In this document: positions 12,750 through 40,428 of the stretch, piece after piece
How positions within the stretch are numbered: position 1 is the first letter of the stretch
How the letters are laid out: each line of letters starts with the position of its first letter
From: Candidatus Versatilivorator sp.
GTDB lineage: Bacteria > Acidobacteriota > Terriglobia > Versatilivoradales > Versatilivoraceae
Direction of reading: 5' to 3'
Length of the DNA stretch: 64,000 nucleotides
Assembly: GCA_965207735.1 (NCBI GenBank)
Contig: OZ242296.1
Location: 2,464,001-2,528,000, forward strand
Made by a program: the position numbers and the translations under genes
Notes under the pieces: model-generated
What the model was told of the DNA's origin: nothing
What the model saw: the letters and a program-made list of their open reading frames with translations, nothing else
Databases searched by the model: none

Positions 12750-14222
12750 TCAACTCCCGGCCCGCTCCTCCAGTTGTTTCGCAAAGGGATCCCCGGTACG
12801 CCGCGACCAGGCCAGCAAGGCCTCCCTGAGGGTGCTCGCCGTCGAGGCCCGGTCGGACCGGGCCGCCAGGTTGGCCATTTCGCCGGGATCCTCGCCCAGG
12901 TGGTAGAGTTCGGTCTCGCCGTTCTCATGCAGCACGTACTTCCAGGGCCGGCGCACGATGGCCCGCCAGTTCTCCACCCCGTGCCAACCGGCAAAGTTGC
13001 GAGCCACGTTGTATTGCACGAAACAGTCGCGGGCCGCGGGCTCGGGCTCGGCGCCCCTCAAATAGGGAACCAGACTCTCTCCTTCCAAGCCCAGGGACTC
13101 GACCCCTACGCCGGCCAGGTCCAGCAGCGTAGCCGCCACGTCAACATGGCTGGCGTCCACTCGACACCGCCTGCCCGGCTTGAAGGCCGCCGGCCAGCGC
13201 ATGGCCCAGGGAACCCGGATGGCCTCCTCGTAGGGACAGAACTTTTGCCAAAGCCCGTGCTGTCCCATCATCTCGGCATGGTCGGAGAGCATCACCAGCA
13301 GAGTGTCGTCCAGCAGATCGCATGCTTCCAGGCGCTGGACAAACTGGCCGAATAGCCAGTCGATGTAAGTAGCGTATCCCCAGTAGACGGCGATGGACTT
13401 GCGCCAGGCCGAGAAGTCTTCCCCCCACTCGTTTCTCAAGCGGCGGTAGTAGCTTCCCTCCAGGAAGCCGGGCTCACCCGTGCCCGGATTCCAGTTGTCC
13501 GGTTCGGGGATGTCCTCGGGCTCGTAGAGGTGGTACCAGGGCTCGGGCACCACCAGGGGCGGATGGGGACCCTCCAGGCTGATCACCAGGAAAAAGGGCC
13601 TGTCGGGATCCCGCAGGCCGAACATCTCGAAGCCGTGGCCCAGGATCCAGCGGTTGTGCTCCTTGTCGGCGGGGATGTCCAGGATTCCGGTCTGAGGCAC
13701 CGTCATTCTCGGATAGTGTAAGGAACGATAGGGACCGCTGCGCTCGTCGTCGTGAAAGATGAAGCCGTCGGGGACTCCCTGCCAGCGGCACCACTCGGAG
13801 TAGGAACGGTCCCCATTGTCGCAGGCGCTGACCCAGTCGAACCAGCGCTGAACATTGCGAGTCCCCAGGTGCCATTTGCCGGCGTAGAGGCACTGGTATC
13901 CCTCCTCCCGCAGAAAGTGGGAGATCGGAGGCCGGGTGATCTCCATGTCCGGATACTCGTCCTCTTCTCCCACCCGAAGCGCCCCCAGGTAGGGCAGATG
14001 GGGCATCCCGGCCTGGTGGGGCTGGAACCCGGTAAAGAAGGAAGCCCGGGCCGGAGAGCAGATAGGGCTGGTTGTGCGCAGATTTTCCATCAGGACCCCT
14101 TCCCGGGCCACGCGGTCCCAGGTGGGAGTTCGGCAGGCGGTCCGTCCAAGGATTCCGAGGGTGTCCAATCGCTGATTGTCACTGATCAGGAGGACGATAT
14201 TGGGTCTGGAAGGGGTGCTCAT
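12750..14222 (-). CDS. Formylglycine-dependent sulfatase
   Basis: RPNIVLLISD, CSPAR (CxPxR), GKWHLG, PHPP and SDH motifs. Confidence 0.9.
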   Translation of the reverse strand: MSTPSRPNIVLLISDNQRLDTLGILGRTACRTPTWDRVAREGVLMENLRTTSPICSPARASFFTGFQPHQAGMPHLPYLGALRVGEEDEYPDMEITRPPISHFLREEGYQCLYAGKWHLGTRNVQRWFDWVSACDNGDRSYSEWCRWQGVPDGFIFHDDERSGPYRSLHYPRMTVPQTGILDIPADKEHNRWILGHGFEMFGLRDPDRPFFLVISLEGPHPPLVVPEPWYHLYEPEDIPEPDNWNPGTGEPGFLEGSYYRRLRNEWGEDFSAWRKSIAVYWGYATYIDWLFGQFVQRLEACDLLDDTLLVMLSDHAEMMGQHGLWQKFCPYEEAIRVPWAMRWPAAFKPGRRCRVDASHVDVAATLLDLAGVGVESLGLEGESLVPYLRGAEPEPAARDCFVQYNVARNFAGWHGVENWRAIVRRPWKYVLHENGETELYHLGEDPGEMANLAARSDRASTASTLREALLAWSRRTGDPFAKQLEERAGS

Positions 14223-14458
14223 GGCTCTGATTGGCTGTGGGAAGAGGTCCCGGCACCGGCGTTCCCGCGGGACCGGCCACTGCAAGAAAGGGGGACATTA
14301 TAGGTCGCCGGCAGACACGATCACAAGGTCCCTGCCCGATCCCCTGGCAAACCCCAACCCCGCTCTGCCGTGCGGACCATGCGACAGCGTGACAACGCAT
14401 TCTTATGGGCGATCGGGAGCAAGAACGATGTCCGGCTTGTCTGAAACAACCCCGCAGT

Positions 14459-15853
14459 TCAAGCGGCTGCGATTTGTGGAACCAGGTTGAAACCAAGAGA
14501 CTTAGCAGCATCTTTGAGGCCCGCGAGGCGTCGTCGCCGGAACCGGTCCTCGTAGCACGCTTCCCCGATGTCGATGTAGTCCTGGCCGTAGCGCAGCATG
14601 CGGTAGACGAGAACGGCCAGCCGGCGGGCCATGGAGAAGACGGCGACGGTCCATCCCTTGTGGCGGGCCTTGCGACGGAAGGCGGCCCCCAGAGCGGTCT
14701 TGGAGTGCTTCAGAGAGACGGCTGCCATGCGCAGGACGGCGGCGGCGCGAGTAGACCCGGTGCTGTTGGCCTTCTTGTAGTGGAGCGGCTTGCCTGCGGA
14801 GACGGCCGTTTTTGGAGCCAGGCGCAGCCAGGATACAAAGTGCTTCTCCGAGGGGAAGGCCGTCAGGTCGAGGCCGGCCTCAGTCAGCAGGGTCAGGGCC
14901 GCTTCGGTGCCGATGCCGTCGATGCGCGTCAGATCGACTCCGGCAAAGCGCCACAGTTCGGTGCGCAGGTGGTGCCCACCGCGGCGGCGAATCGCCTTTT
15001 CCTTGATCGCATTGGGATGCTTCGGCACGGGCTGGTCGTGGCGCTCCACCGGTTGCAGCGCCTGGATTTCCTCCAGGAAGCGGGCCTCATAGGCCGCAAT
15101 CTCGCGTTGAGTCATGTCGTAGAGCTTCAGCGCCGACTTGAGGTTGAACAGATGCTCTTCTCGCCAGTTGCCTCTGAGGTGCTCGGCAAACTCCCGGCTG
15201 GACTTCTTGCACCGTCGGTCCCGCAGACCCGCCAGACGGACCGGGTCCCGTTCTCCGTTGACAATCGCCCGCACGATCGCTATCCCCGTCTGACCGGTCA
15301 GATCGGTGACCGCACGATGGATCTGGACGTTCATCTGATCCAGCGCCTTCTGCATCCACTGCACAAAGCGGGTACTCTCGGCCCCCAGAGTGCTCAGTTG
15401 CCGGTGCAGGGTCCGAACCCGGACGATCGCCTCGTGCGGACGGAAGGATCCCCGCAGCAAGCCGCAACTGTGCAGCAACTGGATCCACTGGCAGTCCCGC
15501 ATGTCGGTCTTGCGGCCCGGAACGTAGCGCAACTGCCGGGCGTTGACCAGCAAGACCTCGATGCCGCAGGACTCCAGCAGTTCGTAGAGGGGAATCCAAT
15601 ACACGTTGGTGCTCTCCATCGCCACCGACTCCACCCCTTGCTCCAGCAACCAGTCGGCCAGTTGCTGCAGTTGCTCCATGGTGGTGCCGAAGGTGCGCAC
15701 GTTCGGCTTCCCTGGGGTCACCTCCAGAGCGCACACCCAGTGCTCCCGACTCCCCAGGTCGATCCCTGCCACCTCGGGGTGGATCCGCGACAAGGCTGTC
15801 GAACGGCTGCGCTTCTTCTTCGTCTTCGTGTTGACTTTCCTGCTCTTTTGCAT
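14459..15853 (-). CDS. IS110 family DEDD recombinase/transposase
   Basis: GIDLG, MEST and KTDMRD (DEDD); 'IDGIG' HhH and 'SAG' in the C-terminal domain; GAGGAGG RBS. Confidence 0.95.
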   Translation of the reverse strand: MQKSRKVNTKTKKKRSRSTALSRIHPEVAGIDLGSREHWVCALEVTPGKPNVRTFGTTMEQLQQLADWLLEQGVESVAMESTNVYWIPLYELLESCGIEVLLVNARQLRYVPGRKTDMRDCQWIQLLHSCGLLRGSFRPHEAIVRVRTLHRQLSTLGAESTRFVQWMQKALDQMNVQIHRAVTDLTGQTGIAIVRAIVNGERDPVRLAGLRDRRCKKSSREFAEHLRGNWREEHLFNLKSALKLYDMTQREIAAYEARFLEEIQALQPVERHDQPVPKHPNAIKEKAIRRRGGHHLRTELWRFAGVDLTRIDGIGTEAALTLLTEAGLDLTAFPSEKHFVSWLRLAPKTAVSAGKPLHYKKANSTGSTRAAAVLRMAAVSLKHSKTALGAAFRRKARHKGWTVAVFSMARRLAVLVYRMLRYGQDYIDIGEACYEDRFRRRRLAGLKDAAKSLGFNLVPQIAAA

Positions 15854-15859
15854 GAGATT

Positions 15860-16060
15860 GGCCTCCTCGGCGGCGATCACTCCGGCCCGAGTTGGCGTGG
15901 TCGTTCGGATTCTTGTCTTGAGGAGAGCTTCCCGGGAAGCCTCACTAATGAATGATGACCTGCTCGGACCCAGACTTGCCTTGGGGCACGGGGCACCAAT
16001 GCTGGAACGGGGCGTAGCTGCCGGAGTCTCGCCAGGTGCTTATTCTTTCACAATGATCCG
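15860..16060 (-). ncRNA. Putative IS110 bridge/seek RNA (non-coding leader)
   Basis: ~200-bp non-coding region upstream of the transposase, with hairpin GCTTCCCGGGAAGC and 7-8-nt matches to the inferred target halves. The location follows the known IS110-group layout; RNA ends are not determined. Confidence 0.55.
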
Positions 16061-16113
16061 TTGTTTCACCCTCGAATGATCCGCCCGTCGTGGGGGGCGG
16101 GGGCGGGACTTGT

Positions 16114-16441
16114 CTGAAACAACCGACAAAAGACAAAAGAAAAAGACTTATCCACGAAGGGGCGCGAAGGACCACGAAGGGCCACGAAGGCGCTGAGGTT
16201 GGCCGCGACGGGGTGCCAAGTTCGCGAAGGGTTGATCGATTTCCGATTGTTTCACTCTATGTATGATCCGCACGGCAGGGCGGGGACCCGGCTTGTCTGA
16301 AACAACCGACAAGAGACAAAAGAAAAAGACTTATCCACGAAGGGGCACGAAGAACGACGAAGGGGCACTAAGGCGCTGAGGTTGGCCGCGACGGGGTACC
16401 AAGTTCGCGAAGGGATGATCGTTTTCCGATTGTTTCACCCT
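16114..16441. mobile_element. Two tandem 145-bp non-autonomous cassettes with IS110 ends (16114-16258, 16297-16441)
   Basis: Each begins CTGAAACAACC and ends TGTTTCACYCT; each is flanked by CTTGT on the left and TGATCCG a few bp to the right. Confidence 0.75.
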
Positions 16442-16661
16442 CGTTTGATCCGCCCCGGGGTAGGGTGGCGTGGGCAGGGCTTGCGGGCAAAGGGCGCCGG
16501 TCGGCGTTCAGAGAAGTCGCCCGCCGGCAAGAAGTGCAAGTCTGCCAAGATCCGAGACGCTCGGCGATTGCCTGTGCTAAGCTTCCCTCCCGAATCGAAG
16601 CCGGAGTTGGCCAGCCCGAATCGCTCCGGAATTTTCGAGTCCCAACCCCGCGAGCAGTCCC

Positions 16662-17669
16662 GTGGCCCAGACATCCCGCAGGCGGTTCCTCTCGCAGTTG
16701 GCAGCCGGACAGAACCTGGGGCCGTCTCCCGGCTCTCGGCCCCGCCGGTCCCTGAACGACCTCCGCCAGGTGCTACGCGGTGTTCACAGCTACCTGCCAA
16801 CGCCCTTTCACGCCAATCTCGAGATCGACCCCGAGGGAATGCGACAAAACGCAGCCTTCTACGCCGAGGCTGGAGTCCAGCCGCTGAGCCTGGTGGTGGC
16901 GGCCGGACTGGGCGAGCTGTTCTCGCTCGGCTTCGAGGAACACCGGGAGGTGGTGGGCGCAGCGGCGGCGGGGGCCAACGGCCGGATTCCGGTGGTGGCC
17001 GGCGTTCGAGGGGGCTACCGGTTCGCCTTGCGGATGTCCCGCAACGCCGAGGAGTCCGGCGCCGACGCCATTCTGATCTTTCCTCCCCCCGGGGGGCCTC
17101 AGACCCTGGAGGGCCTGCGGCAGTATTTCACCGAGATTGCCCGCTCGGTAGGCATCGGCGTGCTGATCTACCCGCGGACGCAACAGGACGACTGGTCCAG
17201 TTTGCTGGAGGAGTTGGCGGACATGCCCAATGTACTGGGGTTCAAGGACGGCAGCCGTGGCATCGCCCTGGGCCGATCCCTGGAACCCCGGACTCGGAAG
17301 CGGCTCGTCTGGACGGCCCGGGGGGAAGAGCATGCGCTCCGGGCCCTGCCGGCCGGGGCCACCGCTTACGCCACCTCCTTCGCCTCACTGGCGCCCAAGG
17401 CTTGCCATGAATTCTGGAGGCTGGGCGCCAAGGGAGACGCCAAGGGCATGGAGAGTCTCTTCAGGAAGCGCATTGCGCCCCTGACCACCATCCGCCGTCG
17501 GCTCCCCCTGCCCGACCGCGCTCCGGGTTTCGGGGTCGCCGCCATCAAGGCGGCCCTGCAGGCCCTGGGACGGGCTGGAGGCAGCGTGCGCCCGCCCAAG
17601 CTTCAGGTCGGCGAAACGGCGGGGATCGCTGAGATTGCAGCCAAGTACTCGGAGTTGACCAAGGGATGA
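16662..17669 (+). CDS. DHDPS/NAL-family protein (5-dehydro-4-deoxyglucarate dehydratase-like)
   Basis: PTPF, GLGE, LIY and GFKDG (Schiff-base Lys); N-terminal SRRRFL without a clear h-region. Confidence 0.8.
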   Translation: MAQTSRRRFLSQLAAGQNLGPSPGSRPRRSLNDLRQVLRGVHSYLPTPFHANLEIDPEGMRQNAAFYAEAGVQPLSLVVAAGLGELFSLGFEEHREVVGAAAAGANGRIPVVAGVRGGYRFALRMSRNAEESGADAILIFPPPGGPQTLEGLRQYFTEIARSVGIGVLIYPRTQQDDWSSLLEELADMPNVLGFKDGSRGIALGRSLEPRTRKRLVWTARGEEHALRALPAGATAYATSFASLAPKACHEFWRLGAKGDAKGMESLFRKRIAPLTTIRRRLPLPDRAPGFGVAAIKAALQALGRAGGSVRPPKLQVGETAGIAEIAAKYSELTKG

Positions 17670-27222: not shown

Positions 27223-27500
27223 CTTGTCTGAAACAACCCTGTTTCACCCTCGGATGATCTGCCCCGTCGTGGGGGGCAGGGGCGCCCCTTGCCTGAAACA
27301 AACGACAAGAGACGAAAGACAAAAGACTTATCCACGAAGGGGCACGAAGAACGACGAAGGGACACTAAGGCGTTGAGGTTAACCGCGACGGGATACCAAG
27401 GTCACAAAGGGATTATCGATTTCTGATTGTTTGACTCTCGAATGATCCGCACGACAGGGCGGGGGCGGGACTTGTCTGAAACAACCGAAAAAAGACAAAA
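27223..27500. mobile_element. Second array of IS110-end cassettes: 23-bp minimal unit (27228-27250), 146-bp unit (27293-27438), and left part of a split unit (27476-27500)
   Basis: Same ends and GC-rich hairpin spacers as at 16084-16452. Confidence 0.75.
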
Positions 27501-27544
27501 GAGCCTTTTGCAAAATTCCGCAGCCAACCGTTTTATGGAGGCTC
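27501..27544. repeat. Mini-unit with the IR of the IS at 35602-37088
   Basis: GAGCCTTTTGCAAAATTC ... GAGGCTC. Confidence 0.55.
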
Positions 27545-27819
27545 GGAACAGGTTTTGATTCACATGGATGCACAGGATGCACAGGATTTGTTCAGGAAAC
27601 GCCCAGTTTCCATTCTTGAGCATCCGCAATCCCGCCTCTCATCATTGCCGGAGCCGGCTTCTCGTGCAGAAACCGCCTTACCAATTCCAGTAACGTTTAC
27701 TCTCGTCCATTGCAGTCCATAAATGTATATAAATTCAGAGTCTTACACGATTCTCGCAACTACTTGGCCGACTCGAAACATCCCTTGCGATCCACTGCCA
27801 TCCCCCATATAATTAGGGG

Positions 27820-29046
27820 ATGATTAATGTAACCAACACCACCCGCCTGCTACGTAAGACGAAACCCAAGGGCCGCCATCCCCAAAAAGCCCTCTCGGCT
27901 GCCTTCATCCGCTCCGCTCCGCCCGGAAGACACGCCGATGGGAACGGATTGTACCTCTTCGTCCAACCCAGCGGAACCCGCAGCTGGATTCAGCGCCTTC
28001 TCGTCCGCGGTCGCCGCCGTGAGCTCGGACTCGGCAGCGTTGCCCTGGTCCCGTTGGCCGAGGCCCGGGAGAAGGCGCTCGCCTACCGCAAGCTCGCCCG
28101 CCAGGGCGGGGACCCGCTCGCCGAGAAGCGACGTAGCCAGGGCATTCCCACCTTCGCCGAAGCCGCCATGCGTGTGCTGGAGCAGAAGCGGGACGGCTGG
28201 CGCAATCCAAAACACTCCCGCGAGTGGCTGTCGAGCCTGAGTCGGTTCGCCTTCCCCCGCATCGGCAAGATGCCGGTCTCCGAGGTCACCAGCGCCGATC
28301 TGCTTGAGATCCTCACGCCCCTCTGGCACCGGAAGGTGGCCACGGCCAAGCGGGTGCGCCAGCGCCTGCGGGCGGTCCTGGAATGGGCGGTGGCCATGGA
28401 GTACCGCCTTGACAACCCCTGTGACCGGATCGGTCCGGTGCTGGGTTCCCAACAGGACGTGACCGAGCACATGCAGGCCGTGCCCCATCGGGAGGCGGGT
28501 GCGGTGATACGTAGGGTGCGGGCATCGGCAGCGCTGCCGGGCGTCAAGTTGGCTCTTGAGTTCCTGGTGCTGACGGCAGCCAGGTGGGGCGAGGTGCGGT
28601 GGGCCGAGTGGAAGGAGATCGATCGGGACGGGAGGGTGTGGACCGTCCCGGCCAGACGGGCAAAGACGAACCGCCGGCACCGGGTGCCTCTGTGTGGCCG
28701 CGCCCTGGAGATTCTCGAAGTGGCCCGAGCACTCGAAGAGGGAGACGGTCCGCTGGTGTTCACCCATGGGGGCGGGAAGCCTCTCCATGACAGCATGCTG
28801 CGGCGCCTGTTGCGCAGACTTGGGATTGCGGCGGTGCCGCACGGGTTCCGCTCGACATTCCGGGACTGGGCGGGGGAGGAAACGGATCATCCCCGGGAGG
28901 TAATCGAGGCGGCCTTGGCGCATGTGGTCCGGAACCGGGTGGAGGCGGCCTATGCCCGCTCGGACCTGTTTGAGCGCCGGCGCATCCTGATGGACGACTG
29001 GGCGCGGTACTTGGCCCAAGGGACGGCTACGGACTCGGAGGCCTGA
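27820..29046 (+). CDS. P4-type tyrosine integrase (Arm-DNA-binding domain)
   Basis: GRHADGNGLYL, LAEAREKA; catalytic R (TAARWGE), K, HGFR, LAH and AAY. Confidence 0.95.
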   Translation: MINVTNTTRLLRKTKPKGRHPQKALSAAFIRSAPPGRHADGNGLYLFVQPSGTRSWIQRLLVRGRRRELGLGSVALVPLAEAREKALAYRKLARQGGDPLAEKRRSQGIPTFAEAAMRVLEQKRDGWRNPKHSREWLSSLSRFAFPRIGKMPVSEVTSADLLEILTPLWHRKVATAKRVRQRLRAVLEWAVAMEYRLDNPCDRIGPVLGSQQDVTEHMQAVPHREAGAVIRRVRASAALPGVKLALEFLVLTAARWGEVRWAEWKEIDRDGRVWTVPARRAKTNRRHRVPLCGRALEILEVARALEEGDGPLVFTHGGGKPLHDSMLRRLLRRLGIAAVPHGFRSTFRDWAGEETDHPREVIEAALAHVVRNRVEAAYARSDLFERRRILMDDWARYLAQGTATDSEA

Positions 29047-29979
29047 TTGCCAAGCGGCGATTTTTGAATCATCCATTGACATCTCTCTCGCTCGCCTTCC
29101 ACAGAGGGGAGAGAGAGTGTGTGCCAGTCTCCAAGCGCGGGAGAACAGCCGGACCATCGCCCTCTTCGACACGCTGAAAGCCTTCAGCAAGCGTGAAGCT
29201 GGGGGCATGGAGACCCCATGCCCAAGACCAGGGAAACCATGATTGCCCACCTGCAGGGACGAGAAAAACTGCTGGAGTATATTGGCTTCCACCGGCAACA
29301 GGCCGAATGGATCACCCTCGTCTGCCTGCACTCGGGTCTGTTCACCCGAGACCAGCTCGCCTTCTACCTGCAGGGGGCCAACCGCTTCTACGTCCGGCGA
29401 TGCGTCAAGGCCCTGCTCGATTGCCGGGTCTCGTCCCGCCCGTTCGCCGACGAACAAGTCATAGACGGCCGGCTCATCTGTCGCATCTTCGGCAAGCAGA
29501 TCTACGAAGTGCTGGAGACCCCTCACGTCCGTCACCGCCGGGAGGCCTCGCTTGAAGTAATCGGGAGGCGACTATTGTCTCTTGACTTCGTGCTGGATCA
29601 TCTGGATTTGCCCTGGTTGACGACCGAGCAGGAGAAGGTCTCCTGCTTCGAGCAGCTCGGGATCGAGCGAGACCTGCTGCCCCTCAGGATCTACTCCGGC
29701 CATGCCAAGGGGCTGATCCACTATTTCCCCCTCAAGACGCCGGTTGCCGTGGGGCCGGAGGCGGCCGTATTTGTCTACGTCGACCCCGGCATGGGAACCC
29801 GTAGTGAGCTGGACTCCTGGGGAGAGGCCCACCGGCGACTTTGGGAGAAGCTCCGCAGGTCGGGCCGGCGCGTCGAGGTGGTTGCGGTCGCCTGGGAGCA
29901 GGTCCTGCTGGACCGTGCCGGTCGGAGACTCCGATCCTGGGTAGCCGAAAAGATGAGCGAGGACGAAAAAGAAGCCCTA

Positions 29980-31679
29980 GCCCGCATTTCTCACCAGAGG
30001 TAGGAAGCATCGGTTCTCGGAATCTGGTAAAATACTCTTGTCTAAGGAGTTAACCAGATTCTTAAAGGAGAACCGATGCCGACACAGTGTAACACCAAAC
30101 CCCTGGAGTTTGAACCCCACGGCCGCCGCCGCGTGGTGGCTGATTTCGACGGCGGTCCCATCACTTCCGATGCCGGCTCCCTGCTGTTGCGCCGGGTGGA
30201 TCGGGGCTTATCTCTCTCCGACCAGGTGGCCGACTGTTTCACCGATCACCGCGACCCCAAGCGGACCCAATACAGCCTGCGCACCCTCATCGCTCAGCGC
30301 ATCCGTGGCATCGCCCTCGGCTACGAGGATCTCATCGACCACGACCAACTCCGTCACGATCCCCTCATGGCCTTGTTTTCAGAGAAAGGCCGTCGTGGCG
30401 ACTCGCCTCCCCTGGCAGGCAAGAGCACCCTCAACCGACTCGAACACGCCCCCACCCAAGGCCCCACCCGCTACCACAAGATTGACCACGACCCCGAGGC
30501 CTTGCAAGCCCTCCTGGTGAAACTGTTTCTGCAAGCCCATCCCCAACCCCCCGATGAGATCATCCTCGACCTCGACGCCACTGACGATCCCCTCCACGGG
30601 GAACAAGAGGACCGCTTCTTCCACGGCTACTACCGAGGCTACTGCTACCTGCCCCTCTACATCTTCTCGGGCCGCCATCTGCTCTCGGCCCTGCTCAGAC
30701 CCGCCAACATCGATGCCTCCGCCGGCGCTCTGGAGCAGGTCCAGCGCATCGTCTCCCGCCTACGGCGTGTCTGGCCTCAGGTCAAGATCCTGCTGCGGGC
30801 CGACTCCGGCTTTGCCCGTGAGGAGCTGATGGGGTGGTGTGAGCAGCATCAGGTCGACTATCTCTTCGGCCTGGCCCGCAACTCCCGCCTCCAAGACGCC
30901 ATCGCCCCCGAGTTGGCTCAGGCCCAGGCCCTCTCAGACCAGCAACAGCAGCCCGCCCGGATCTTCACCGACCTCTCCTACCGCACTCACAAGAGCTGGT
31001 CCCACGAGCGCCGCCTGGTCGCCAAAGCCGAGGTCCTGCCCCGCGGCCCCAACCCCCGCTTCGTCGTCACCTCTCTGTCGGTCCAGGACTACCCCGCCCA
31101 GTTCCTCTATGAGAAGATCTACTGTGCCCGCGGTGAGATGGAAAACCGCATCAAGGAGCAGCAACTCGACCTGTTTGCCGATCGCACCTCCACCCACTCC
31201 TTCCGGGCGAATCAGCTCCGGCTCCTGATGACCTCTTTCGCCTATGTGCTGGTGGAGGGCTTGCGCCGGCGGGCGCTGCAATCCACCTGCCTGGCCCGGG
31301 CCACCGTCGGTTCCATCAGACTCAAACTGCTCAAGATCGGCGCTCAGGTCACCATCTCGGTCCGTCGCATCAAGGTCGCCATGGCTTCCGGATGTCCTTA
31401 CCAGAGGGAGTTCCGCATCGCTTGGGCTCACCTGCCGCCCTGAGGTGCCCTGACCCGACCGTCACTCCTGGCCCTTGAAGACGCGGCCACCAGGCCCGAT
31501 GGCAGAGGTGTCGCTGTTTTCGAGGGAAAATGCCGCCTGAGGTTCCTCGGAGAGCCTCAGAAGCCTCCGCTGTTGGCCTTTGCCTACCGATCCAGCCACC
31601 AACGTTGTTAAACTCGGCCTCAAATGCCTCCATGGCCCCTTTTACCGCTCCTGTGCGAACTCTGGTGAGAAATGCGGGC
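29980..31679 (+). mobile_element. IS1380-family insertion sequence
   Basis: 20-bp IR GCCCGCATTTCTCACCAGAG / CTCTGGTGAGAAATGCGGGC; flanked by TA on both sides. Confidence 0.95.
30076..31443 (+). CDS. IS1380 family transposase
   Basis: FDGGPITSDAG, LDLDATDD..HGEQE, LRADSGF and YCARGEMENRIKEQ. Confidence 0.95.
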   Translation: MPTQCNTKPLEFEPHGRRRVVADFDGGPITSDAGSLLLRRVDRGLSLSDQVADCFTDHRDPKRTQYSLRTLIAQRIRGIALGYEDLIDHDQLRHDPLMALFSEKGRRGDSPPLAGKSTLNRLEHAPTQGPTRYHKIDHDPEALQALLVKLFLQAHPQPPDEIILDLDATDDPLHGEQEDRFFHGYYRGYCYLPLYIFSGRHLLSALLRPANIDASAGALEQVQRIVSRLRRVWPQVKILLRADSGFAREELMGWCEQHQVDYLFGLARNSRLQDAIAPELAQAQALSDQQQQPARIFTDLSYRTHKSWSHERRLVAKAEVLPRGPNPRFVVTSLSVQDYPAQFLYEKIYCARGEMENRIKEQQLDLFADRTSTHSFRANQLRLLMTSFAYVLVEGLRRRALQSTCLARATVGSIRLKLLKIGAQVTISVRRIKVAMASGCPYQREFRIAWAHLPP

Positions 31680-32539
31680 TAATGCTTCGCCAAGCCATCG
31701 CTGAGACCGATTTTGACACCGTCGAACGCCATGGCGGCTTCAATGCTGTCGTAGAGAAAGTCCTCCGATGGGAGCGGGAAAACCCGGCGCCCAAGGGCCG
31801 CGAAACGATCGACGATTTCCGCCTCTGGGGGTCACGCAGATGCCGTCGTATGGGTGGCCACCTTACAAAGGGGGGGTGGCGCAAGTAGGTGGTGCACGAT
31901 TGTGGCAATTACAAATCTGCACTATCAGAGGGCAAAGCCCTCGCTGTTGTGGTCCAGGCTGTGTCCGGGAATCCGCATTGGAAGCGGGTTGGCACGGATT
32001 CCCCAAATCGTCTGGGGTAAAGCGCAGTGCGGCGCCGCGCCAGGGTGTCCCCGCCTCGCACGGCGCGTCGTGGCGCCGCACGGGAGGGGGAGGAAGTGGA
32101 GGGAGCGACCCCCTGTTTTTTGCCGCTGGTGCGGCACCGGGCAGGGGTAGGTGGTGCGCCCCAATGGTCACACCATCTCCCCTCCCCGGCGGGGGTCACT
32201 CCCTCCACAGTGATCCCTGCGGAATTCATCTGTCATTTACGTAACACGTTGTATAAAACGGAGTTATTGATTTTCAGACGGTGTCCTGCCCCCCATTATG
32301 CCCCCCAGAAAAAAACAGATTTCCCTGGCTCTTGGTGGCCGTACCGGGACGATTCGACCACCGGGCTGCGACCACGGAACCGCTGAGCGAGCCGACCATT
32401 CCGGTTTCCCCACAGGCGGCGGGACCTGCGGTCCCTGAGAGGGAAATTGGTCCAGGAGGCGTTTCGGGGTGCTCTGCTATGCCAGGGAGTGAGAAAGTCC
32501 AGCCTGCCCGGCAAAGCTCGCGGATTCAGGGTGCAGGAG

Positions 32540-33060
32540 GACACCGTCGAACGCCATGGCGGCCTCGGTGTCGTCATGGAGAAGATCGACCATTGGGAGC
32601 AGGAAAGCCCGGCTTCCAACGGCCGCGACATGATCGACGATTTCCGCCTCCGGGGGTCAAGGACGTGCCGTGGTATGGACGCGCCACTGAGAAACAAGGG
32701 GTGGCGCACGGAGGTGGCGCGCGTGGTGGCGCGTCCCCTCAACAACCCCAACGCTCCACTCTCAGAGGGCGAAGCCCTCGCCGTCGTGGTCCAGGCTGAT
32801 CCCGGAAACCCGCATTGGACGCGGGCTGGCACGGATTGCCCAAATCCTGTGGGGTAAAGCCCCGTGGGGCGTCGGCATCGCGTGTCCACCCCCTCGCACG
32901 CCGCGTCGTGGCGCCGCACAGGAGGGGGAGGAAGTGGAGGGAGCGACCCCCCTCTTTTTGCCGCTGGTGCGGCACCGGGGAGTGTTTACCGGCGCGTACA
33001 GTGGCGCGCGGTCAACCCTCCCCTTTGGGGGTCGCTCCCTCCACAGTGATCCCTGGCGGG
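32540..33060 (+). repeat. Diverged copy of 31715-32222 (3' end of the hypothetical gene plus conserved non-coding region)
   Basis: DTVERHGG...IDDFRL is present in both copies, followed by shared non-coding blocks. Confidence 0.85.
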
Positions 33061-33083
33061 AAGGCCATCGAGCGCTGCCGAGG

Positions 33084-33395
33084 TCAGGGCCGATCAACCG
33101 ATCGGTCCGGCCCTCGACTCCCGGCGGCCAGGTAGCCGGCCCAGTCATCCATAAGCCGGCGCCGACGCTCGAACAGGTCCGGGCGCCGGTAGGCCGCCTC
33201 GATCTGGCTGCGGACCTTGTGCGTCAGGGCAGCCTCCGCCACCTCGCGAGGATGATCGGTCTCTTCGGCCGCCCAGTCCCGGAAGCTCGACAGGAAGCCG
33301 TGCGGCACGGCCGCGGCGTTCAACTTCCGGAGCAGTTCCGACAGCGTCGTGTTCGCGATCGGCTTCCCCCCAACGCCGGGAAACACCAAGGGAGC
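33084..33395 (-). pseudogene. Duplicated C-terminal integrase fragment
   Basis: Near-identical to the C-terminus of the adjacent integrase; HGFR has become HGFL. Confidence 0.85.
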
Positions 33396-34774
33396 GGCGG
33401 GGGTGATGGAGGGGCCAGGGGAGCGCTCTCCCCGGTCGGGGGTTCGAAGGGGCCGGAGCCCCTCGCCAGCCCCAATGTATTACATTGGGTAGGCTGGCTC
33501 CCCGGCAGGCGCCGGCCCCGCTGTCCCCGCCCCGCACGGCCATCGAGCGCTGCTTCGGCCTGCGGCCCTCGGCTCGGGCCGGCCAGGTAGCCGGCCCAGT
33601 CATCCATGAGCCTGCGGCGACGCTCGAACAGGTCCGAGCGCCGGTAGGCCGCCTCGATCTGGCTGCGGACCTTGTGCGCCAGGGCAGCCTCCGCCACCTC
33701 GCGAGGATGATCCGTTTCTTCGGCCGCCCAGTCCCGAAAGCTCGACCGGAAGCCGTGCGGCACCGCCGCGATCTTCAACTCCCTGAGCAGTTCCGACAGC
33801 GTCGTGATCGCGAACGGCTTGCCCCTAACGCTCGGAAACACCAGCGGACTGCTGCGAGAGAGCGCCCGCGCCTCCTCCAGGATCTCCAGGGCGCGCCGGC
33901 ACAGCGGGACCCGGTGCTTGCGATTCCCCTTCGTGCGCGGGGCCGGGATGCTCCACACGCCCTGGTCGCAGTCCATCTCGGTCCAGACCGCCCCGCTAAC
34001 CTCGCCGGAGCGTGCCGCCGTGAGCACCAGGAACTCGAAGGCCAGCTTCACCGCCGGCCTCGCCCTCGACGCCCGCACCGTCTCGATCGCCGACGCCACC
34101 TCGGGATGCGGCAAGGCCCGCCTGTGGCGCACGCCGTTGCCCTGTGCGCCCAGCACCGGGCCGATCCGGTCGCAGGGGTTGTCGGGCCGCAGGTCCATCG
34201 CCACCGCCCATTCCATGACCGCCCGGATGCGCTGGCGCAGCTTCCGGGCCGTGGGCGCCGTCTCGTGCCAGATCGGAGACAGAATCCCCACCACATCGGC
34301 ACTGGACACCTCGGAAACCGGCATTCCGCCGATGCGAGGCAGGGCGTAGCGCTCCAGGCTGCTGAGCCAGAGCTGGGCATGCTGAGGGGAGCGCCAGCCC
34401 GGCCGCAGCTGATTGTAGACCTGGTAGGTCGCCTCGGCAAAGGTGGGTGTCGACTCGGACCGCCGCTTCTCCGAGAGGGGATCGCCGCCCTCCCGGGCCA
34501 GCTTCCGGTTGGCGAAGGCCTTCTCCCGGGCTTCCTTCAGCGAGACCAGGGGGAATCCGCCCAGCCCGAGCTCGGCGCGGCGGCCACGGATGGTGAGGCG
34601 CTGGATCCAGCCCCGGCTGCCGGAGGGACGCACGTCGAGATAGAGCCCCTGGCCGTCACAATAGCGTCCGGACTGGCTCACGCTGCGGACAAAGAGGGGC
34701 GTGAGGGCGTTGTCGGGATGCTGGCTGCGGGGCTTGCGGTGCGGAGGGCGTTTGGGAAGCATCATACCCCCCAT
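33320..34774 (-). CDS. P4-type tyrosine integrase (second copy; reads through into a non-conserved tail)
   Basis: GRYCDGQGLYL, TAARSGE, HGFRSSFRDW, LAH and AAY; paralogue of 27820-29046. Confidence 0.9.
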   Translation of the reverse strand: MGGMMLPKRPPHRKPRSQHPDNALTPLFVRSVSQSGRYCDGQGLYLDVRPSGSRGWIQRLTIRGRRAELGLGGFPLVSLKEAREKAFANRKLAREGGDPLSEKRRSESTPTFAEATYQVYNQLRPGWRSPQHAQLWLSSLERYALPRIGGMPVSEVSSADVVGILSPIWHETAPTARKLRQRIRAVMEWAVAMDLRPDNPCDRIGPVLGAQGNGVRHRRALPHPEVASAIETVRASRARPAVKLAFEFLVLTAARSGEVSGAVWTEMDCDQGVWSIPAPRTKGNRKHRVPLCRRALEILEEARALSRSSPLVFPSVRGKPFAITTLSELLRELKIAAVPHGFRSSFRDWAAEETDHPREVAEAALAHKVRSQIEAAYRRSDLFERRRRLMDDWAGYLAGPSRGPQAEAALDGRAGRGQRGRRLPGSQPTQCNTLGLARGSGPFEPPTGESAPLAPPSPPPLPWCFPALGGSRSRTRRCRNCSGS

Positions 34775-35033
34775 TATACTCCCCTAAATAGGTGGGATGC
34801 AAGGGTATGGTGCGGGACGCTATGGGAATGGATGGATGCTCAAGTATGCTCATAACAGACTGTATCTAAGTCGATTATGTACACTATGGGACCTAGTTGG
34901 AAGATCAGTCCATTCTGAAGAGGCATTCCCTGCGGGAAGGCATCCGAGCGTCCTTTCGCGCTCACGGAGGATGAGTGGCTCTCCCGTGTAGCCTTGTGAC
35001 CTGCTTGTCACTCTATGTGTTATTGTGTGTCTT

Positions 35034-35440
35034 ATGTTGCACCGTGTTCCACTTCATATCCGTGTCTCTCCCGAAACCCGTCAACGCCTCCAGCTCATCC
35101 GCACCCGCCGGCACCTCAACGCCGGCTCCTGGCTGCGCGCCCTCATCGATGAGGCCCTCGACCGCGAGTTTGGTCCCGCTCCCACGGACGCGAATGAGCT
35201 GGTCGCGTCGCTCAAGGCCGCGTCCCCGGAACCCATCCCTGGATGGACCCCGGCCAGGCTGAAGGGTGGTATCTGGGGAGCTTGCTTCCAAGGGGACACC
35301 CGCACCCTCCCTCCCGACCGACCTCGACGGCCTCACCATCGCCGTCGCGACTCGCTCTGGAGACTCCTGAAACGCAACCGCCACCGAGGTCCTCGAGCGT
35401 TCCTCGAATCTCGTCCTGGTCCATGCCCCAAGACTCCATC
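35034..35440 (+). pseudogene. Small ribbon-helix-helix-like protein, frameshifted
   Basis: LHIRVSPETRQRL...WLRALIDEALDR; after a frameshift near 35315 it continues DLDGLTIAVATRSGDS*NATATEVLER. Confidence 0.4.
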
Positions 35441-35601
35441 AATGAGCCTATTCAGCTAAACCGGATTTGGGCCGGGTCCGCACCAGACCCTTGGGCCACA
35501 CTTGCCCTGTGTTGCATCTTCTCGAGCCGTCAGAAATTCACTGACTTGGTGGACCAATAAATGGGCCCCTTGATTTAGAAAACGGAATATCCAAGATTAA
35601 G

Positions 35602-37088
35602 GAGCCTTTTGCAAAATTCGGAATCGGGCATGACATTGGGCTGGCAACAGTGATGTTCCGGCGGTGACTACCCAGCTGCAAAGACCCTTTTGAAGGAAAA
35701 AGCCCGAATCTGATGGCCGGATGGCCAGCGGTCGCCGGACGCAGGCACAGCTTACCCTCTCCCGGCCTTGAGGCGGGCGAACCTGCTGTGCGGTTGGGGG
35801 TGGCAACCCGGTCTTCAGAGCGTCAGGCGCATCAACTGATCCACCGTCAGGGCCAGAATGCCGAACATCAGGTGGCACCTCACCTTGTCGGGGCCGCGAA
35901 CCCTCACCTGCCTCCCGCCAAACTCCTCCTTGAGCCGTCCGTTGACCCGCTCCACCGTCGAGCGTTCCCGGTAGCGCCGCGCCTCGGGAGTCACTTGGCC
36001 GATACAGCGCCGGGCCAGTGCCTCCCGCTTCCGCTCGGCTTTCAAGGTAGCTCTTCGGCGGGGGTTGACGTCAATAATCGGCACATGCCCCAGCTTCTCA
36101 CTGAAGGCCCGGATCTCCGGCGCATCGTAGGCGCTGTCCATCAAGTCGTAGAGACTCTCGACCCGCCTTGCCGTCAGCGTCGCCAGCGGAATGGCTGCCT
36201 GAGAGTCATGCACCGAGGCCGAGGTCAGCAGACAACTGACCGGAATCCCGCCGTCAATGGCGTCGAGGTGTAGCTTGTAGCCGGTCCAGCTCTCCTGATG
36301 CCCCTTGGCGTTGCGCTTGACGCCGATGTCGCAGGCCTTGGGCAACTCCTTCAACATTTCCTCCAGCGTCATCGACCCCTGCCGCTCCAGCCGGCTCAAC
36401 CGCTTGGGCCGTCGCTCGCCCTTCGGCGGCCGGCCCCGCCGGCGTTTCCGCTTGGCCTCCGGCGCAGCCTTGGCCGCTGGCTTTTCCCGTCCCGCAATCG
36501 CCGTCGAGTCCCTCGACACATGCCCCGCCAAGTGGCCCTTCAGCGTCTCCTCCAGCAATGCCTCGTGCAAACGCCCCGGCAGGTCGCTCTCAGCGAATTC
36601 CGCAAAGGCCCGCGAGAAGGTCGACTCGCTCGGTACCTCCCACGCCCTCTCCCAGCCGCACAGCCGCCGCAGCCTCCCCTCACTCCTCAGCCGCTCCACC
36701 AATCCCCGCGTGGTCGCCACCTCCAGCATCGACTTCGCCAGATAGGCTCGCGCCAGCACTGCCCGATCCTCCAGCGGCCGGCCACGCCAGCCCCGACTGT
36801 AAGGCAGCAACTCCTCCACCCGCACCAACTCCAATACCTGCACCAGCCGCTGGTAACGCTCTCCCAGAGGCCCCAAAACTTCCTCCAGCAGGGGAAACAG
36901 CTCTCGTTGAAACCGGAACCAGTGTCGTGATAGGGTTTCCCTAAGGGGCAAGTTCCACCTCCGTTCATCATGTGGTTCAGACACCTTCATGATACAACAG
37001 ACAGTGGTCTTGCCCCTCCTTCCACCTGCCCTCCTTGATCTTTCCCCACGTGAAAATTCCCGCTATCTGCGAATTTTGCAAAAGGCTC
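35602..37088 (-). mobile_element. IS5/IS1182-like insertion sequence
   Basis: Perfect 19-bp IR GAGCCTTTTGCAAAATTCG; TAAG duplicated on both sides. Confidence 0.9.
35815..36990 (-). CDS. DDE transposase (DUF772 + DDE_Tnp_1-like)
   Basis: VPSESTFSR, RDSTAI, GYKLHL, HDS, MDSAYD and RSTVERVNGRLK. Confidence 0.9.
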   Translation of the reverse strand: MKVSEPHDERRWNLPLRETLSRHWFRFQRELFPLLEEVLGPLGERYQRLVQVLELVRVEELLPYSRGWRGRPLEDRAVLARAYLAKSMLEVATTRGLVERLRSEGRLRRLCGWERAWEVPSESTFSRAFAEFAESDLPGRLHEALLEETLKGHLAGHVSRDSTAIAGREKPAAKAAPEAKRKRRRGRPPKGERRPKRLSRLERQGSMTLEEMLKELPKACDIGVKRNAKGHQESWTGYKLHLDAIDGGIPVSCLLTSASVHDSQAAIPLATLTARRVESLYDLMDSAYDAPEIRAFSEKLGHVPIIDVNPRRRATLKAERKREALARRCIGQVTPEARRYRERSTVERVNGRLKEEFGGRQVRVRGPDKVRCHLMFGILALTVDQLMRLTL

Positions 37089-37171
37089 TAAGGTCTTAAC
37101 ATATAGAGAGGTGGGGTTTGGACACTTTCCGATATAGTCCCCTAATCAAGGATGTGGGGTTCTCTCGCAGG

Positions 37172-38983
37172 TCATGGAACGTAGTGGGGGAGCTGGAACT
37201 GAGATAGTTTCCCGTCGCAGAATTCAAGGACCAGCGCGGTCGCTTCTCCAGTAATTCTTAACTGTCCCTGGGTTCGTCTGAGATTCGACAGCTTATCTTT
37301 CAATGAGAATGCGGAATGGTAAAGTGACCCAAGGTTGACACTTCCCATTGATTCCAGGTTGTAATCTATAGCCTCGATCGTAACTTCCTCTCCAGTCCCG
37401 GCGATTGCTACTCCTAAATCGCAAGGGTTCCCGTACTCCAGGGTGAAAACCAGTCCTTTAGGTGTCATCTTCTGTAGAGGGATGGTGGAGCGAAATGTCT
37501 CTCCGGAGCGGTGGAATTGCTTGTATGTCGTGTCGACTGCAATGCAGCCGCCCCCATTGTCTACAACATAGCCGTACCCTTGGATAAGTTCTCCCTTGAG
37601 ATTGTGCAGGAGGAAGGAGTGGGTGTCCTTCCCTTCCATGGGGTCATCCCCGTTGTGCATACCGATGTAACGATCATCTGAGTCGTCTGCAAAGTCAAAC
37701 CCCTGCAGGTCCCCGTTGTCATCACGCAGATCGATGTCGTAAGTCACTGGATAGTCGCAGGTGTTCAGGACGTGGATCAGAGTCCCCCAGCCCAGCCCTT
37801 GGGCAATGTGGGGAATGTGCCGTCCAGAGGGGGAAAGTGAGACGGGAGAGAGCGGTGTGGTGGCGGCCACCGTGCCTGACCAGGAAGAGCCTTTAATATG
37901 GTCTTCGGTGTTGTAGGCTCGAATCCGGTAACTGTAGGTTGTTTGGGGGGATGCACTACCGTCGATAAACTCCAAACTAGGTACGAATTGATTGACTAAA
38001 TAGGACCATCTCGCCACAGCCTCTCTTCTATCTATAACGTACCCGTAAGCGTTATCCCCATTGGGATTGGACCATTTTAGTGAGACTCTGTGCGGACCCA
38101 ATGCAGTGGCAGTCAAAGATGGGGCTGTCAGAGTGATCGTCTCATCGTCGCCTCCGCCTCCGCCAGTGCCGGAGACATACCCGTAGATCCAGCTATAGTG
38201 CAGGGAGGTCTGCACGTAAGTTCCGGGGAATCCGACAAGTTCCGGGTCGATACTCCCAAGAGAGGCCACGCCGACTTGTCCCCATTCGCTTCCAGTTCTT
38301 ACTAGCAAAGGACCTCCGCTGTCCCCGCCGCGAATCCCCTCTGCCGCAGTGCCAGCACAGAACGTTCCAATTGCTTGAGTGAAGCCAAAGCGACCAAGCC
38401 GCTCCTGACAGTCTGACCGACTATATAGGGGTATGCTGACCTTTTGGAGAATGCCCGGGAACTCTCCGTCTTCATTTCTCCCCCACCCCACGGCAACAGA
38501 GGTGCTTCCTGAAGGAGCATACAGGGACTCTTGTACATTGGTAAGAACCGTTACGGTTGTATTGGAAAGGGATGCTGAGAGTTGTAGGAGCGCGAGATCG
38601 TTGGTTCCCAGAATGCTTGTAGAGTACCGCGGCTGCACAATGATCCTTTGTACTGTTCGTTTTTCTTCCAAGGCTTGGGAGTTAACCCCGGTATAGACAG
38701 AAACGTCGCTGGCAGCAGCTAATTCTCCAACTTCGTTGTAGACACAGTGGGCGGCCGTCAGCACCCAATCAGCTGCCAGCAAGGATCCCGTGCATCTATA
38801 TCCACGATTGTTTTCCCTGTCGGTCACTTGCCATACCAGGACAACAAAGGGAAACTCGCCGCGAATGACATTTTCCCCACGAGCAATCAGGTGCTCTTCT
38901 CGGTCGCGACTCTTGGATGAACCTGAGAGGGTTAGCAATAAGGTACGCGCAATGACACAAATCAAACGGATGGGTGGATACAT
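37172..38983 (-). CDS. Trypsin-like serine protease with fibronectin type III domain
   Basis: TAAHC, DLALL and GDSGGP triad; FN3 'YSYRIRAYN'; visibly lower GC than the flanks. Confidence 0.9.
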   Translation of the reverse strand: MYPPIRLICVIARTLLLTLSGSSKSRDREEHLIARGENVIRGEFPFVVLVWQVTDRENNRGYRCTGSLLAADWVLTAAHCVYNEVGELAAASDVSVYTGVNSQALEEKRTVQRIIVQPRYSTSILGTNDLALLQLSASLSNTTVTVLTNVQESLYAPSGSTSVAVGWGRNEDGEFPGILQKVSIPLYSRSDCQERLGRFGFTQAIGTFCAGTAAEGIRGGDSGGPLLVRTGSEWGQVGVASLGSIDPELVGFPGTYVQTSLHYSWIYGYVSGTGGGGGDDETITLTAPSLTATALGPHRVSLKWSNPNGDNAYGYVIDRREAVARWSYLVNQFVPSLEFIDGSASPQTTYSYRIRAYNTEDHIKGSSWSGTVAATTPLSPVSLSPSGRHIPHIAQGLGWGTLIHVLNTCDYPVTYDIDLRDDNGDLQGFDFADDSDDRYIGMHNGDDPMEGKDTHSFLLHNLKGELIQGYGYVVDNGGGCIAVDTTYKQFHRSGETFRSTIPLQKMTPKGLVFTLEYGNPCDLGVAIAGTGEEVTIEAIDYNLESMGSVNLGSLYHSAFSLKDKLSNLRRTQGQLRITGEATALVLEFCDGKLSQFQLPHYVP

Positions 38984-39750
38984 TTCTTGCTTCCTTTTCT
39001 CACTTGTGGGCAGTTTGGTTGGAAAGAGGGTGCCGGGTCTTATGATGGCAAGAGATCGTCATTCGTCTTCTGGGTAAGGAAGAGTGCGTGATTCGTTTTG
39101 CTACGGAAAAGCACGTGCAAGGCTTCGCATAAATATACCCCAGTTTGCAGAAGCACGCATCAGAGCCACGACTGACGCCAAGTGTCCCTTGAGCTTCGGA
39201 TGTCCGAACTCTAAAGTGCATCAGCAACGATGCTGACTTCGGCGATGTCCAGATGACAGGACATGATTCAGTCGTTTTAGCTCGTCGAGAACCCCATAAT
39301 GAGAGGGGAAGGGCAGCTTGCCACTCCACTTGACGGCACCCGACGAAGTGCCCCCCTTTCACCTCCACGGGATGGAGACCCAGAGCCGAGAAGCGGCCCG
39401 TGGTTGTCGGAACGATACAGTCGGATCGCGTGATGCGTAAGGACTTCGCGGCTGACGATCATCTGCCGTTATCCTGTCCGCAGGAGGTCTTGCCGCAGCG
39501 ACGGGTGGTTCAAGCCCGACAGCAACCCAAAGGGAATTGATCGCTACGGAGAGGATGCCGTTCCGACCGCTCCACGACGGTCTGACCGAACGGTTACGTC
39601 CGCCAACATCCTGGAGGGGCCAGTGGAGTCCTTTTCACAAAGAGGGATATAATGAGGGAACTGCAACCAGCTGATTTGTATTAAGTCTATTATAAGCAGT
39701 GGGTTACAATCGATAGGATGCAGTTCGTGCAGCAGCGTCCCGTACTGGTT

Positions 39751-39804
39751 ATCCTGTGCATCCTGTGCATCCTGTGCATCCTGTGCATCCTGTGCATCCA
39801 TGTT
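39751..39804. repeat. (ATCCTGTGC)5 ATCCATGTT array; inverted partner of 27561-27587
   Basis: Read directly from the sequence; reverse complement of ACATGGATGCACAGGATGCACAGGAT. Confidence 0.9.
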
Positions 39805-39810
39805 CATTAT

Positions 39811-40048
39811 GAGCCTTTTGCAAATTTCGCAATCGGGAATGACATTGAGGCGGCAAGGATGATGTGCTGCAGGCTCCAGCATTCGCCACGATAAGCACAA
39901 GAGACAACAGAAACCACAAAAAGCACAAAAGGCACAAAACGAGTTTCTTGATTTCGAGACGTGCCCATCCGATGGTTCTTTTTGTGTTTTTGTGCCTTTT
40001 GTGGCCATTCCCGGCAAAGGTCCCGCTGCCGAATTTTGCAAACGCCTC
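39811..40048. mobile_element. MITE derived from the 35602-37088 IS, containing a nested 9-bp-period inverted array (39914-40005)
   Basis: First ~60 bp are homologous to 35602 onward; the end TCCCGCT..CGAATTTTGCAAACGCCTC is homologous to 37058-37088. Confidence 0.8.
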
Positions 40049-40428
40049 CAAAGAAAAAGAGTTATCCACGAAGGACCGATAAGAGTCATCCACAGAGGAA
40101 AACGGCGAACCGCGAATGGACAGGATGAACAGGATTATTGGGCAAGAGTTTCCACCGTCTCGAGTTCAACTATCGCCCATGCTTCAACAAGGATTCCAAA
40201 ACCCGCTTCCATCCTCATGGAATACCTCGAACACGAACCGATCATTAAGAAGCCCGCTTCCTGTGCCGCAGCGTCTCTTCCTGTTAATCCTGTCCATCCT
40301 GTCTATCCATGTTCCCTAATGCGACAAATCGAATTAGCGGAACATGCCCTACACCCGATACGCCAAGAAAGTCCCCTGTTGCACCCTCGTGTGATCCGCC
40401 TCGTTATGAGGGGCGGGGGCTGAACTTG
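40049..40428. repeat. Right part of the split IS110-end cassette, with a nested 9-bp-period element (40116-40313)
   Basis: AAAGAAAAAGAGTTATCCACGAAGG continues the cassette broken at 27500; right end TGTTGCACC-CT-CGTGTGATCCGC at 40377-40399. Confidence 0.65.

Follow-up and report, generated by a model that had tools for sequence, protein, structure and literature searches.

A probably self-targeting IS110 element and its arrays of gene-less units in a Candidatus Versatilivorator genome

We analysed a stretch of 64,000 nucleotides (the window) from contig OZ242296.1 of Candidatus Versatilivorator sp. (assembly GCA_965207735.1), in which an insertion sequence (IS) of the IS110 family lies beside short units that carry no gene and share its ends. 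The genome of the window, G000, comprises 5.26 Mb at 62% GC. An earlier note, made from the sequence alone, had described the IS and the units, and its claims were rechecked here. The transposase sense is the minus strand of the window, and a CT on the plus strand is an AG in transposase sense. We call the end near the transposase stop codon the B box (CT-TGYCTGAAACAA on the plus strand) and the opposite end the A box. The IS measures 1,673 bp from core to core and contains the following features.

14436..14437, minus strand: core dinucleotide at the IS right end, CT on the plus strand and AG in transposase sense; conservation of the flank begins here in 10/10 copies, and the orthologous site in genome G002 holds a cassette directly at the CT and no IS
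14436..14451, minus strand: B box, IS right end, made up of the donor word AGACAAG (14436-14442) and the subterminal repeat GTTGTTTCA (14442-14450); laid out as the ISPpu9 B box (PMC12288879 Table S2)
14459..15853, minus strand: IS110-family recombinase of 464 amino acids; PF01548, PF02371, and NF033542 at 215.5 bits (cut-off 140)
15854..16059, minus strand: upstream non-coding region, predicted bridge RNA scaffold; scaffold words conserved in homologues down to about 52% protein identity
15912..15918, minus strand: predicted left donor guide AGACAAG; variable base equal to the element's own end in 10/10 G000 copies, and 4.82/5 agreement across 38 lineages
15975..15981, minus strand: AGGCAAG, the predicted left target guide, which a single transition separates from the donor guide; follows the insertion site in 39 lineages and reads AGGTCAG in a sister clade
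16060..16110, minus strand: A box, IS left end, with subterminal repeat TGAAACAAC, GC hairpin at 16081-16100 and core CT at 16109-16110

The protein has the DEDD RuvC-like domain and the C-terminal Tnp domain with catalytic serine that define the IS110 family. Residues D32, E80, D117, D120 and S352, which we take to be the DEDD residues and the catalytic serine, were invariant or nearly so in 30 homologues. Two further family traits were found: insertion at a 2-nt core that duplicates nothing else of the target (seen in the three precise unit pairs, in the near-precise one, and for the IS at the same CT in comparison with G002), and a non-coding region with guides matching target and donor, in which the left guides covary and the right guides do not. 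The ten IS copies of G000 are 97-100% identical, and the genome has no PF01548 gene besides theirs. Among named relatives of the transposase the closest is in a Terriglobia genome, and a related strain was present in a sequencing run labelled sponge metagenome. A phmmer search of solved structures with the transposase gave 0 matches, and a search of plasmids gave only relatives below 60% identity, with no named IS among them.

Next to the IS and in a second array of the window lie gene-less units, whose lengths are 183 and 188 bp in array 1 and 65 and 183 bp in array 2. Most belong to a family of about 182 bp, termed a182.

16109..16291, minus strand: 183-bp gene-less unit of the a182 family, assigned by sequence and nhmmer family
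16292..16481, minus strand: 188-bp gene-less unit of the a182 family, with its closing CT at 16480-16481
27223..27287, minus strand: 65-bp minimal unit, a B box and an A box alone; 22 such starts in the genome, some degenerate
27288..27470, minus strand: 183-bp gene-less unit of the a182 family, assigned by sequence

Boxes of this kind are numerous in G000. Counted as pattern matches against reversed or complemented control sequences, there were 275 B boxes and 226 A boxes (0-2 and 9-12 in controls), and a second A-box pattern gave 217 matches (1-3 in controls). The boxes fall into 212 clusters, for which a gap of 2.3 kb was allowed so that some are not contiguous, and 69 of these contain at least 2 B boxes, the maximum being 7; the units do pile up as arrays, as had been claimed. 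By the sequence after the B box, 209 units are of a182 type, 19 minimal, 15 of a type of about 390 bp, 10 are the IS and 22 are other. There are 191 nhmmer matches to a182 of at least 140 nt, and a182 matches cover about 45 kb, or 0.9% of the genome. In a crude test, 37% of B boxes and 27% of A boxes lie in long stop-free frames, against 86% of the genome, which points to a preference for intergenic sites, stop-free frames being a poor proxy for genes at 62% GC.

The motifs listed in the earlier note were found where it had placed them: CTTGT-CT-GAAACAACC at 14436, GTTGTTTCACCCT at 16060-16072, units at 16114-16258, 16297-16441, 27228-27250 and 27293-27438, and a split copy at 27476...40387. 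The gene-less units have both ends of the IS, and the other genomic copies of the IS carry these ends as well (10/10). The core itself had been put at the CT of 14441 and 16071. The crossover is instead the CT of CTTG, 5 nt outside that CT. We place the core at 14436-14437, 16109-16110, 16292-16293 and 16480-16481 because of the filled and empty alleles described below and because G002 has the cassette at the CT without the IS. On the B-box side, conservation begins at the CT of CTTG, and the positions upstream of it hold at most 0.33 bits (137 first boxes). At the other end, all ten IS copies run beyond the formerly proposed right CT through an identical hairpin to GGGA-CT. The A box differs among the ten only by a C that is linked to lineage and by a change immediately beyond the core, and a hairpin variant of one base co-segregates with an IS sub-lineage. 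In the 92 units that a subsequent B box closes, the hairpin variant was tied to the unit on its left (p=0.0002) and not to that on its right (p=0.88). The hairpin 'spacer', formerly read as the target, is the element's own left end: it travels with the element, is the same in the ten IS copies and is absent from clean empty alleles. The compensatory change reported in it is real, with the base pair C-G in 134, T-A in 30, C-A in 13, T-G in 6 and other in 12 of 195 scored hairpins; the copies are kin, so this change may be one event. The circle junction predicted in the earlier note, which joins at the inner CT (TGTTTCACC-CT-GAAACAAC), had 0 matches in the genome with at most one mismatch. A junction at the outer core would have the same sequence in a circle as in an array.

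Filled and empty alleles were compared between G000 and 1.6 of the 5.1 Mb of G002, which is about 95% identical. The comparison took in 136 array starts in G000 and 46 in G002, with a unique orthologous left flank for 35 and 36 of them; 21 and 20 were scored as occupied in both genomes, and 14 of the other 30 were inspected. Three insertions were precise at the CT with the hairpin within the insert (G000:2555334, 161 bp; L310, a 171-bp unit; L289, a 2,235-bp array), and a fourth, at G000:1603888 (184 bp), was near-precise. Empty sites had been predicted, and in these pairs they exist; the sequence predicted for them, CTTGY-CT-CGNNTGATC, was nowhere matched exactly in the 5.26 Mb and was matched five times with one mismatch. 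At the window's own array-1 site, the G002 allele carries the cassette as listed above, and G004 has no array (3/11 loci could be anchored). In sequencing run X8 a left-flank contig enters the B box and most of the IS is uncovered; read evidence for array 1 consists of contigs, which break at repeats.

For the guides, 208 transposase hits in fetched loci yielded 41 parsed lineages, many hits being duplicate loci or too distant to parse. The 4.82 of 5 variable positions at which the donor word agrees with the element's own right end compare with 2.95 for shuffled words. For the target word, compared with the bases preceding the left core, the agreement is 4.44 of 5 (n=39; 1.97 for shuffled words), where the site was taken as the best-matching AG within a 13-nt window. 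These lineages are kin, so p-values overstate the covariation, and many different guide words were matched nonetheless. Right of the core the agreement was 0.54 and 0.47 of 2 positions, equal to shuffles, and hence without right-guide covariation. Guides end at the outer AG in every parsed lineage, and the donor word agrees with the own end in 14/15 intact copies from relatives. The order of the words in the leader fits that of IS621, target loop then donor loop, as given in the accessible text of PMC11208158. The non-coding region had no match in Rfam, the single-sequence fold of the leader was uninformative (z 0.91), and a sigma-70 promoter scan of 15850-16500 returned 0 sites.

In the clade of G000 the target and donor words agree at 6-7 of 7 positions, and all 26 full-length copies stand at a B box (10 in G000 and 16 in G002, G004, G005 and G013; 23 exact, 3 variant). 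G000 has 1,459 CTTGYCT sites, of which just 205 run on into GAAAC, so the choice of site gains specificity from the subterminal repeat, likely through the protein. Seven of the ten G000 copies inserted where the target side had no hairpin. The match of the target guide to the element's own right end, which the earlier note had missed, is the likely cause of the arrays. Over the whole guide set, 12/39 lineages stand just after an end motif, and 6/33 of those scored outside the clade. In Opitutales (L064, L066, L067), related IS110 copies lie in tandem with each other and with short units bounded by A and B boxes, and neighbouring copies there carry different target guides.

On these sequence data we consider it probable that an IS110 element of ISPpu9 layout, equipped with a predicted target guide that matches its own end, inserts itself and the gene-less units at the AG core of existing units and so builds head-to-tail arrays. 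What the sequences show of this is the ends, the core position, the precise filled/empty pairs, the covariation of guide and site, and the site preference. A unit would be copied or cut out as a circle joined at the AG (B box-AG-A box). The final 7 nt of a B box would serve both loops, the donor loop reading them in the moving unit and the target loop in a different unit. Because target and donor have the same left half, recombination would leave a B box on each side, the site would be reusable and the target would outlive every insertion; a target rebuilt in this way at each insertion would explain the arrays. The right-hand guides would contribute nothing beyond the core, and the protein would read the subterminal repeat and the hairpin. 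With ends read by protein, the preference for B boxes over bare guide matches would be explained, as would the size of about 60 bp that the smallest passenger retains. New arrays would be founded at chance genomic look-alikes of sequence CT-TRYYTG. Array ends do lie at such look-alikes, with a minority at CT-RACC (105 scored), and these latter were perhaps left by a sister-type guide.

If the same elements and ends built arrays by recombination of the donor loop alone at B boxes, in donor-donor or half-match reactions, then the likeness of the target guide would be incidental. IS621 performs donor-donor recombination (accessible part of PMC11208158), half-match and donor-only reactions have been shown for it by Xie et al. 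(available portion of 10.64898/2026.08.31.748434), and repeat-unit boundaries beside IS110 retain matches to the left donor guide only (available portion of 10.64898/2026.08.14.744561). Within the G000 clade the two loops are also indistinguishable by sequence. The sister clade, at 79% protein identity, separates them: its donor word is unchanged, its target word is AGGTCAG, and its copies stand at CT-RACC repeats in 9/9 cases. Its hosts G008 and G013 have 17 and 19 exact B boxes, and G013 carries both clades. With the same donor word and with B boxes at hand, 0/9 copies are at a B box and 9/9 follow the target word, which argues that the target loop, and not donor-donor recombination, sets the insertion site. 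We therefore regard growth by the donor loop alone as unlikely, and such recombination may add to array growth. The sister clade (L026-L030, L137-L139) inserts in tandem heptamer repeats TGRTCAG and has its own minimal unit of about 60 bp beside one copy.

The status of the short units requires separate consideration. That they are passengers moved by the IS110 transposase, we infer from the shared ends and the precise insertions. The same idea in the earlier note holds, with other unit boundaries; its 23-bp unit and its requirement of about 11 bp per end give way to a smallest unit of 60-65 bp (about 16 + 43-48 nt), which is found first in an array, inside one or alone, and which has its own T-A hairpin variant in 12/14 closed copies. 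A 141-bp family in G002 retains 68 nt of the IS right end (0/500 shuffles) and is a deletion derivative of the IS. Units termed b345 were tried as such derivatives and gave no significant match (152/500 shuffles), and no IS-derived interior was found in the family of about 390 bp. A search of G000 found no bridge-RNA copies outside the 10 IS copies. The a182 units gave no sign of a structured RNA (mean folding z +0.95 and +0.30, no Rfam match) and no conserved fold beyond the end hairpin. Neighbouring a182 units resemble each other no more than distant units do (0.847, n=23, against 0.841, n=2,963), as fits separate insertions. Local tandem duplication was rejected as the main source of arrays on this ground, although a few neighbours do reach 95-97%.

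It is quite improbable, in our estimate, that the short units are instead a family like the repetitive extragenic palindromes (REP) or REPINs, spread by another enzyme or by homologous recombination, whose ends the IS110 element captured and now targets. REP and REPIN sequences are short palindromes in inverted pairs spread by a RAYT-type enzyme. The units here are directional, head-to-tail and bounded by IS110 ends; no search for a RAYT gene was made. Such an origin would suit the lack of IS similarity in the a182 interior, the nested REP-like arms of other units, the many diverged copies (a182 averages 84% identity), and the abundance of A boxes in G009 and G011, where no full-length transposase was matched. 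However, the entire transposase subfamily, whose hosts belong to several phyla, has the arrangement of A box, B box and AG core; the units inserted precisely at that core, and the G002 141-bp family derives from the IS. G001 has neither IS nor boxes, and G000 holds no further PF01548 gene. The nested arms occur in 390-bp units (e.g. G000 C1:1324523) as inverted ATGGATGCACAGGAT ... ATCCTGTGCATCCAT, and are also found free in the genome.

The arrangement first proposed, with an inner-CT core, 11-bp ends and a chromosomal hairpin repeat as target, is hardly credible: the inner CT does flank both subterminal repeats and some array starts hint at occasional use of a second CT, but exact empty targets number 0 and filled ones more than 200, the hairpin segregates together with the element and is missing from clean empty alleles, and guides end at the outer AG in all parsed lineages. 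The array starts in question are CTTGY-CTTGY doublets: 18/137 first B boxes follow CTTGN, 15 of these CTTGY (e.g. window 27218-27227). Both guides also extend as CTTGYCTTG, and the doublets are possibly a footprint of recombination at the second CT.

Several observations weigh against insertion of the IS and its units by a self-matching guide. Of the five one-mismatch sites, three continue into hairpin-like sequence and resemble the empty target first predicted. In most of the 14 inspected pairs the right flanks are altered or occupied in shifted register; in the L276 pair, which is not one of the 14, one G000 allele retains a bare degenerate A box, and the empty site of array 2 in G002 additionally lacks about 97 bp upstream of the first CT. 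The donor word of the L014 copy is discordant with its own end, and only in 7/10 G000 copies can the target base be predicted from the target guide's variable base. The guide set is small for the hits behind it, and the choice of the best-matching AG is a selection bias that inflates the target-site match. In the founder-site logo the terminal CT was chosen by expected spacing, and 43/226 A boxes have no CT there. Finally, derivation of the a182 interior from the IS was rejected as not significant, 308/500 shuffles scoring as well.

A broader reading is one towards which we lean only slightly. An ISPpu9-like branch of IS110 would combine left-only 7-nt guides with protein-read ends, and on several occasions its target guide would have been reprogrammed to match right ends of elements like itself. 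The result would be a self-renewing landing site and an integron-like platform on which any DNA enclosed by a B box of 16 nt and an A box of 43 nt could be stacked in order. The branch would be the main source of one genus-wide class of repeats.

The passenger principle is already known. ISPpu9 and MITEPpu9 (the ssr9 module) of Pseudomonas putida KT2440 are an IS110 element and its MITE (a miniature transposable element with inverted repeats) with common boxes, circles and tandem copies, in the accessible text of PMC12288879. From that text, in which its end layout was compared, ISPpu9 shares with the present element the upstream non-coding region, the AG core, a 43-nt A box with a GC hairpin ending AAACA and a 16-nt B box with TGTTT. 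MITEPpu9, likewise gene-less, has these boxes too, stands in tandem with the IS or with further copies of itself, and has been seen to form circles; our units are bounded by A and B boxes of an autonomous IS110 and also occur in tandem and alone. ISPpu9 differs in that it targets host REP sequences, and its MITE has 8 copies carrying a small-RNA gene (same text), whereas here the target is the own B box and there are about 200 passengers in several families, arrays of up to 7 B boxes and a 60-bp unit without interior. The available portion of Hu et al. (10.64898/2026.08.14.744561) describes tandem non-coding units beside IS110 transposases (n=468, Fig. 4B) with left-donor matches alone, explained by half-matches. 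The tandem non-coding build-up adjoining a transposase is alike in those expanded loci, a set that may include this clade; the present system differs in a target guide that itself matches the end, in the renewal of the target, and in units scattered over the genome at a distance from the IS.

IS621, in the accessible parts of PMC11208160 and PMC11208158, also has a leader RNA with target loop then donor loop, left guides that include the 2-nt core, and REP-like repeated targets. It differs in its CT core, its 9-nt left and 4-nt right guides and its other target and donor; the element described here has an AG core, left guides of about 7 nt and no detectable right-guide specificity. Subterminal inverted repeats recall the IS1111 group, which by the available definition (PMC11187229) has repeats of 11-13 bp placed 7 and 3 bp from the ends and a non-coding region that is mostly downstream. 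In our element the repeat has 9 bp and lies some 40 bp away from the core on the left and 4-5 bp away from the other core, and the non-coding region is upstream, which places the element outside that group. In ISPpu10 a GC-rich DNA stem-loop beside the crossover may add specificity beyond the guide, and there it belongs to the target (accessible part of 10.64898/2026.03.19.712850), unlike the hairpin of our element's left end. Our literature search, which left subscription papers and preprint supplements outside, found no report of a target guide matching the element's own end. The additions made here are this self-matching guide, the left-only guides, the scale and the 60-bp unit.

The element would be a natural case in which target and donor guides of a bridge recombinase coincide and insertion rebuilds the target, contrary to the usual picture of IS110. 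A large dispersed and tandem repeat family would be explained as IS110 passengers, with a 60-bp minimal mobile unit defined, and the sister clades would offer a guide swap made by nature. In genome engineering, cargo could be stacked serially at a site of this kind, which outlasts insertion, though left-only guides of 7 nt would limit specificity.

Across the genus, the A-box pattern occurs 31-328 times in 12/13 other genomes. The remaining genome, G001, has no match to the transposase and no boxes. In the complete genomes G009 (262 A boxes) and G011 (70), this query matched no full-length transposase, and the passengers may have outlasted their master there.

Array 2 ends in a split unit of a182 type, the right part of which carries further inserted repeats.

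27471..27500, minus strand: B-box part of the split a182-type unit, assigned by sequence
27501..40048, no strand: 12.5-kb block inside the split unit, not part of the IS110 system; IS5/IS1182-like inverted ends, absent at the orthologous G002 site
40049..40426, minus strand: remainder of the split unit with nested repeats; A box 40377-40424, closing CT 40425-40426

The block contains two genes for P4-like tyrosine integrases (27820-29046, plus; 33320-34774, minus), an IS1380 transposase (30076-31443), an IS5/IS1182-like element and a gene for a trypsin-like protease (37172-38983, minus). After the last A box of an array, three repeat modules recur: CT-TACCTGAGAATATGC in 11/11 copies, CT-TGTTAGCAATTG in 21/39 and CT-CGCGGACAAAC in 9/44 (e.g. 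C1:2914157, C1:3164733, C1:1216512); such modules may be sites at which arrays are preferentially founded, or else old units whose B boxes have become worn. Both arrays of the window lie between divergent genes, array 1 (within 12750-16662) between those for a sulfatase and a protein like dihydrodipicolinate synthase, and array 2 (within 26209-40581) between those for an HpcH aldolase and a Gfo/Idh oxidoreductase, so both could affect the shared promoters of their flanking genes. Of the IS5/IS1182-like element of the block (35602-37088, ends GAGCCTTTTGCAAAA), the genome contains 43 full copies that are nearly identical and for the most part show 4-bp duplications; 13/43 are located within or next to a182 units, as a rule in the A-rich tract.

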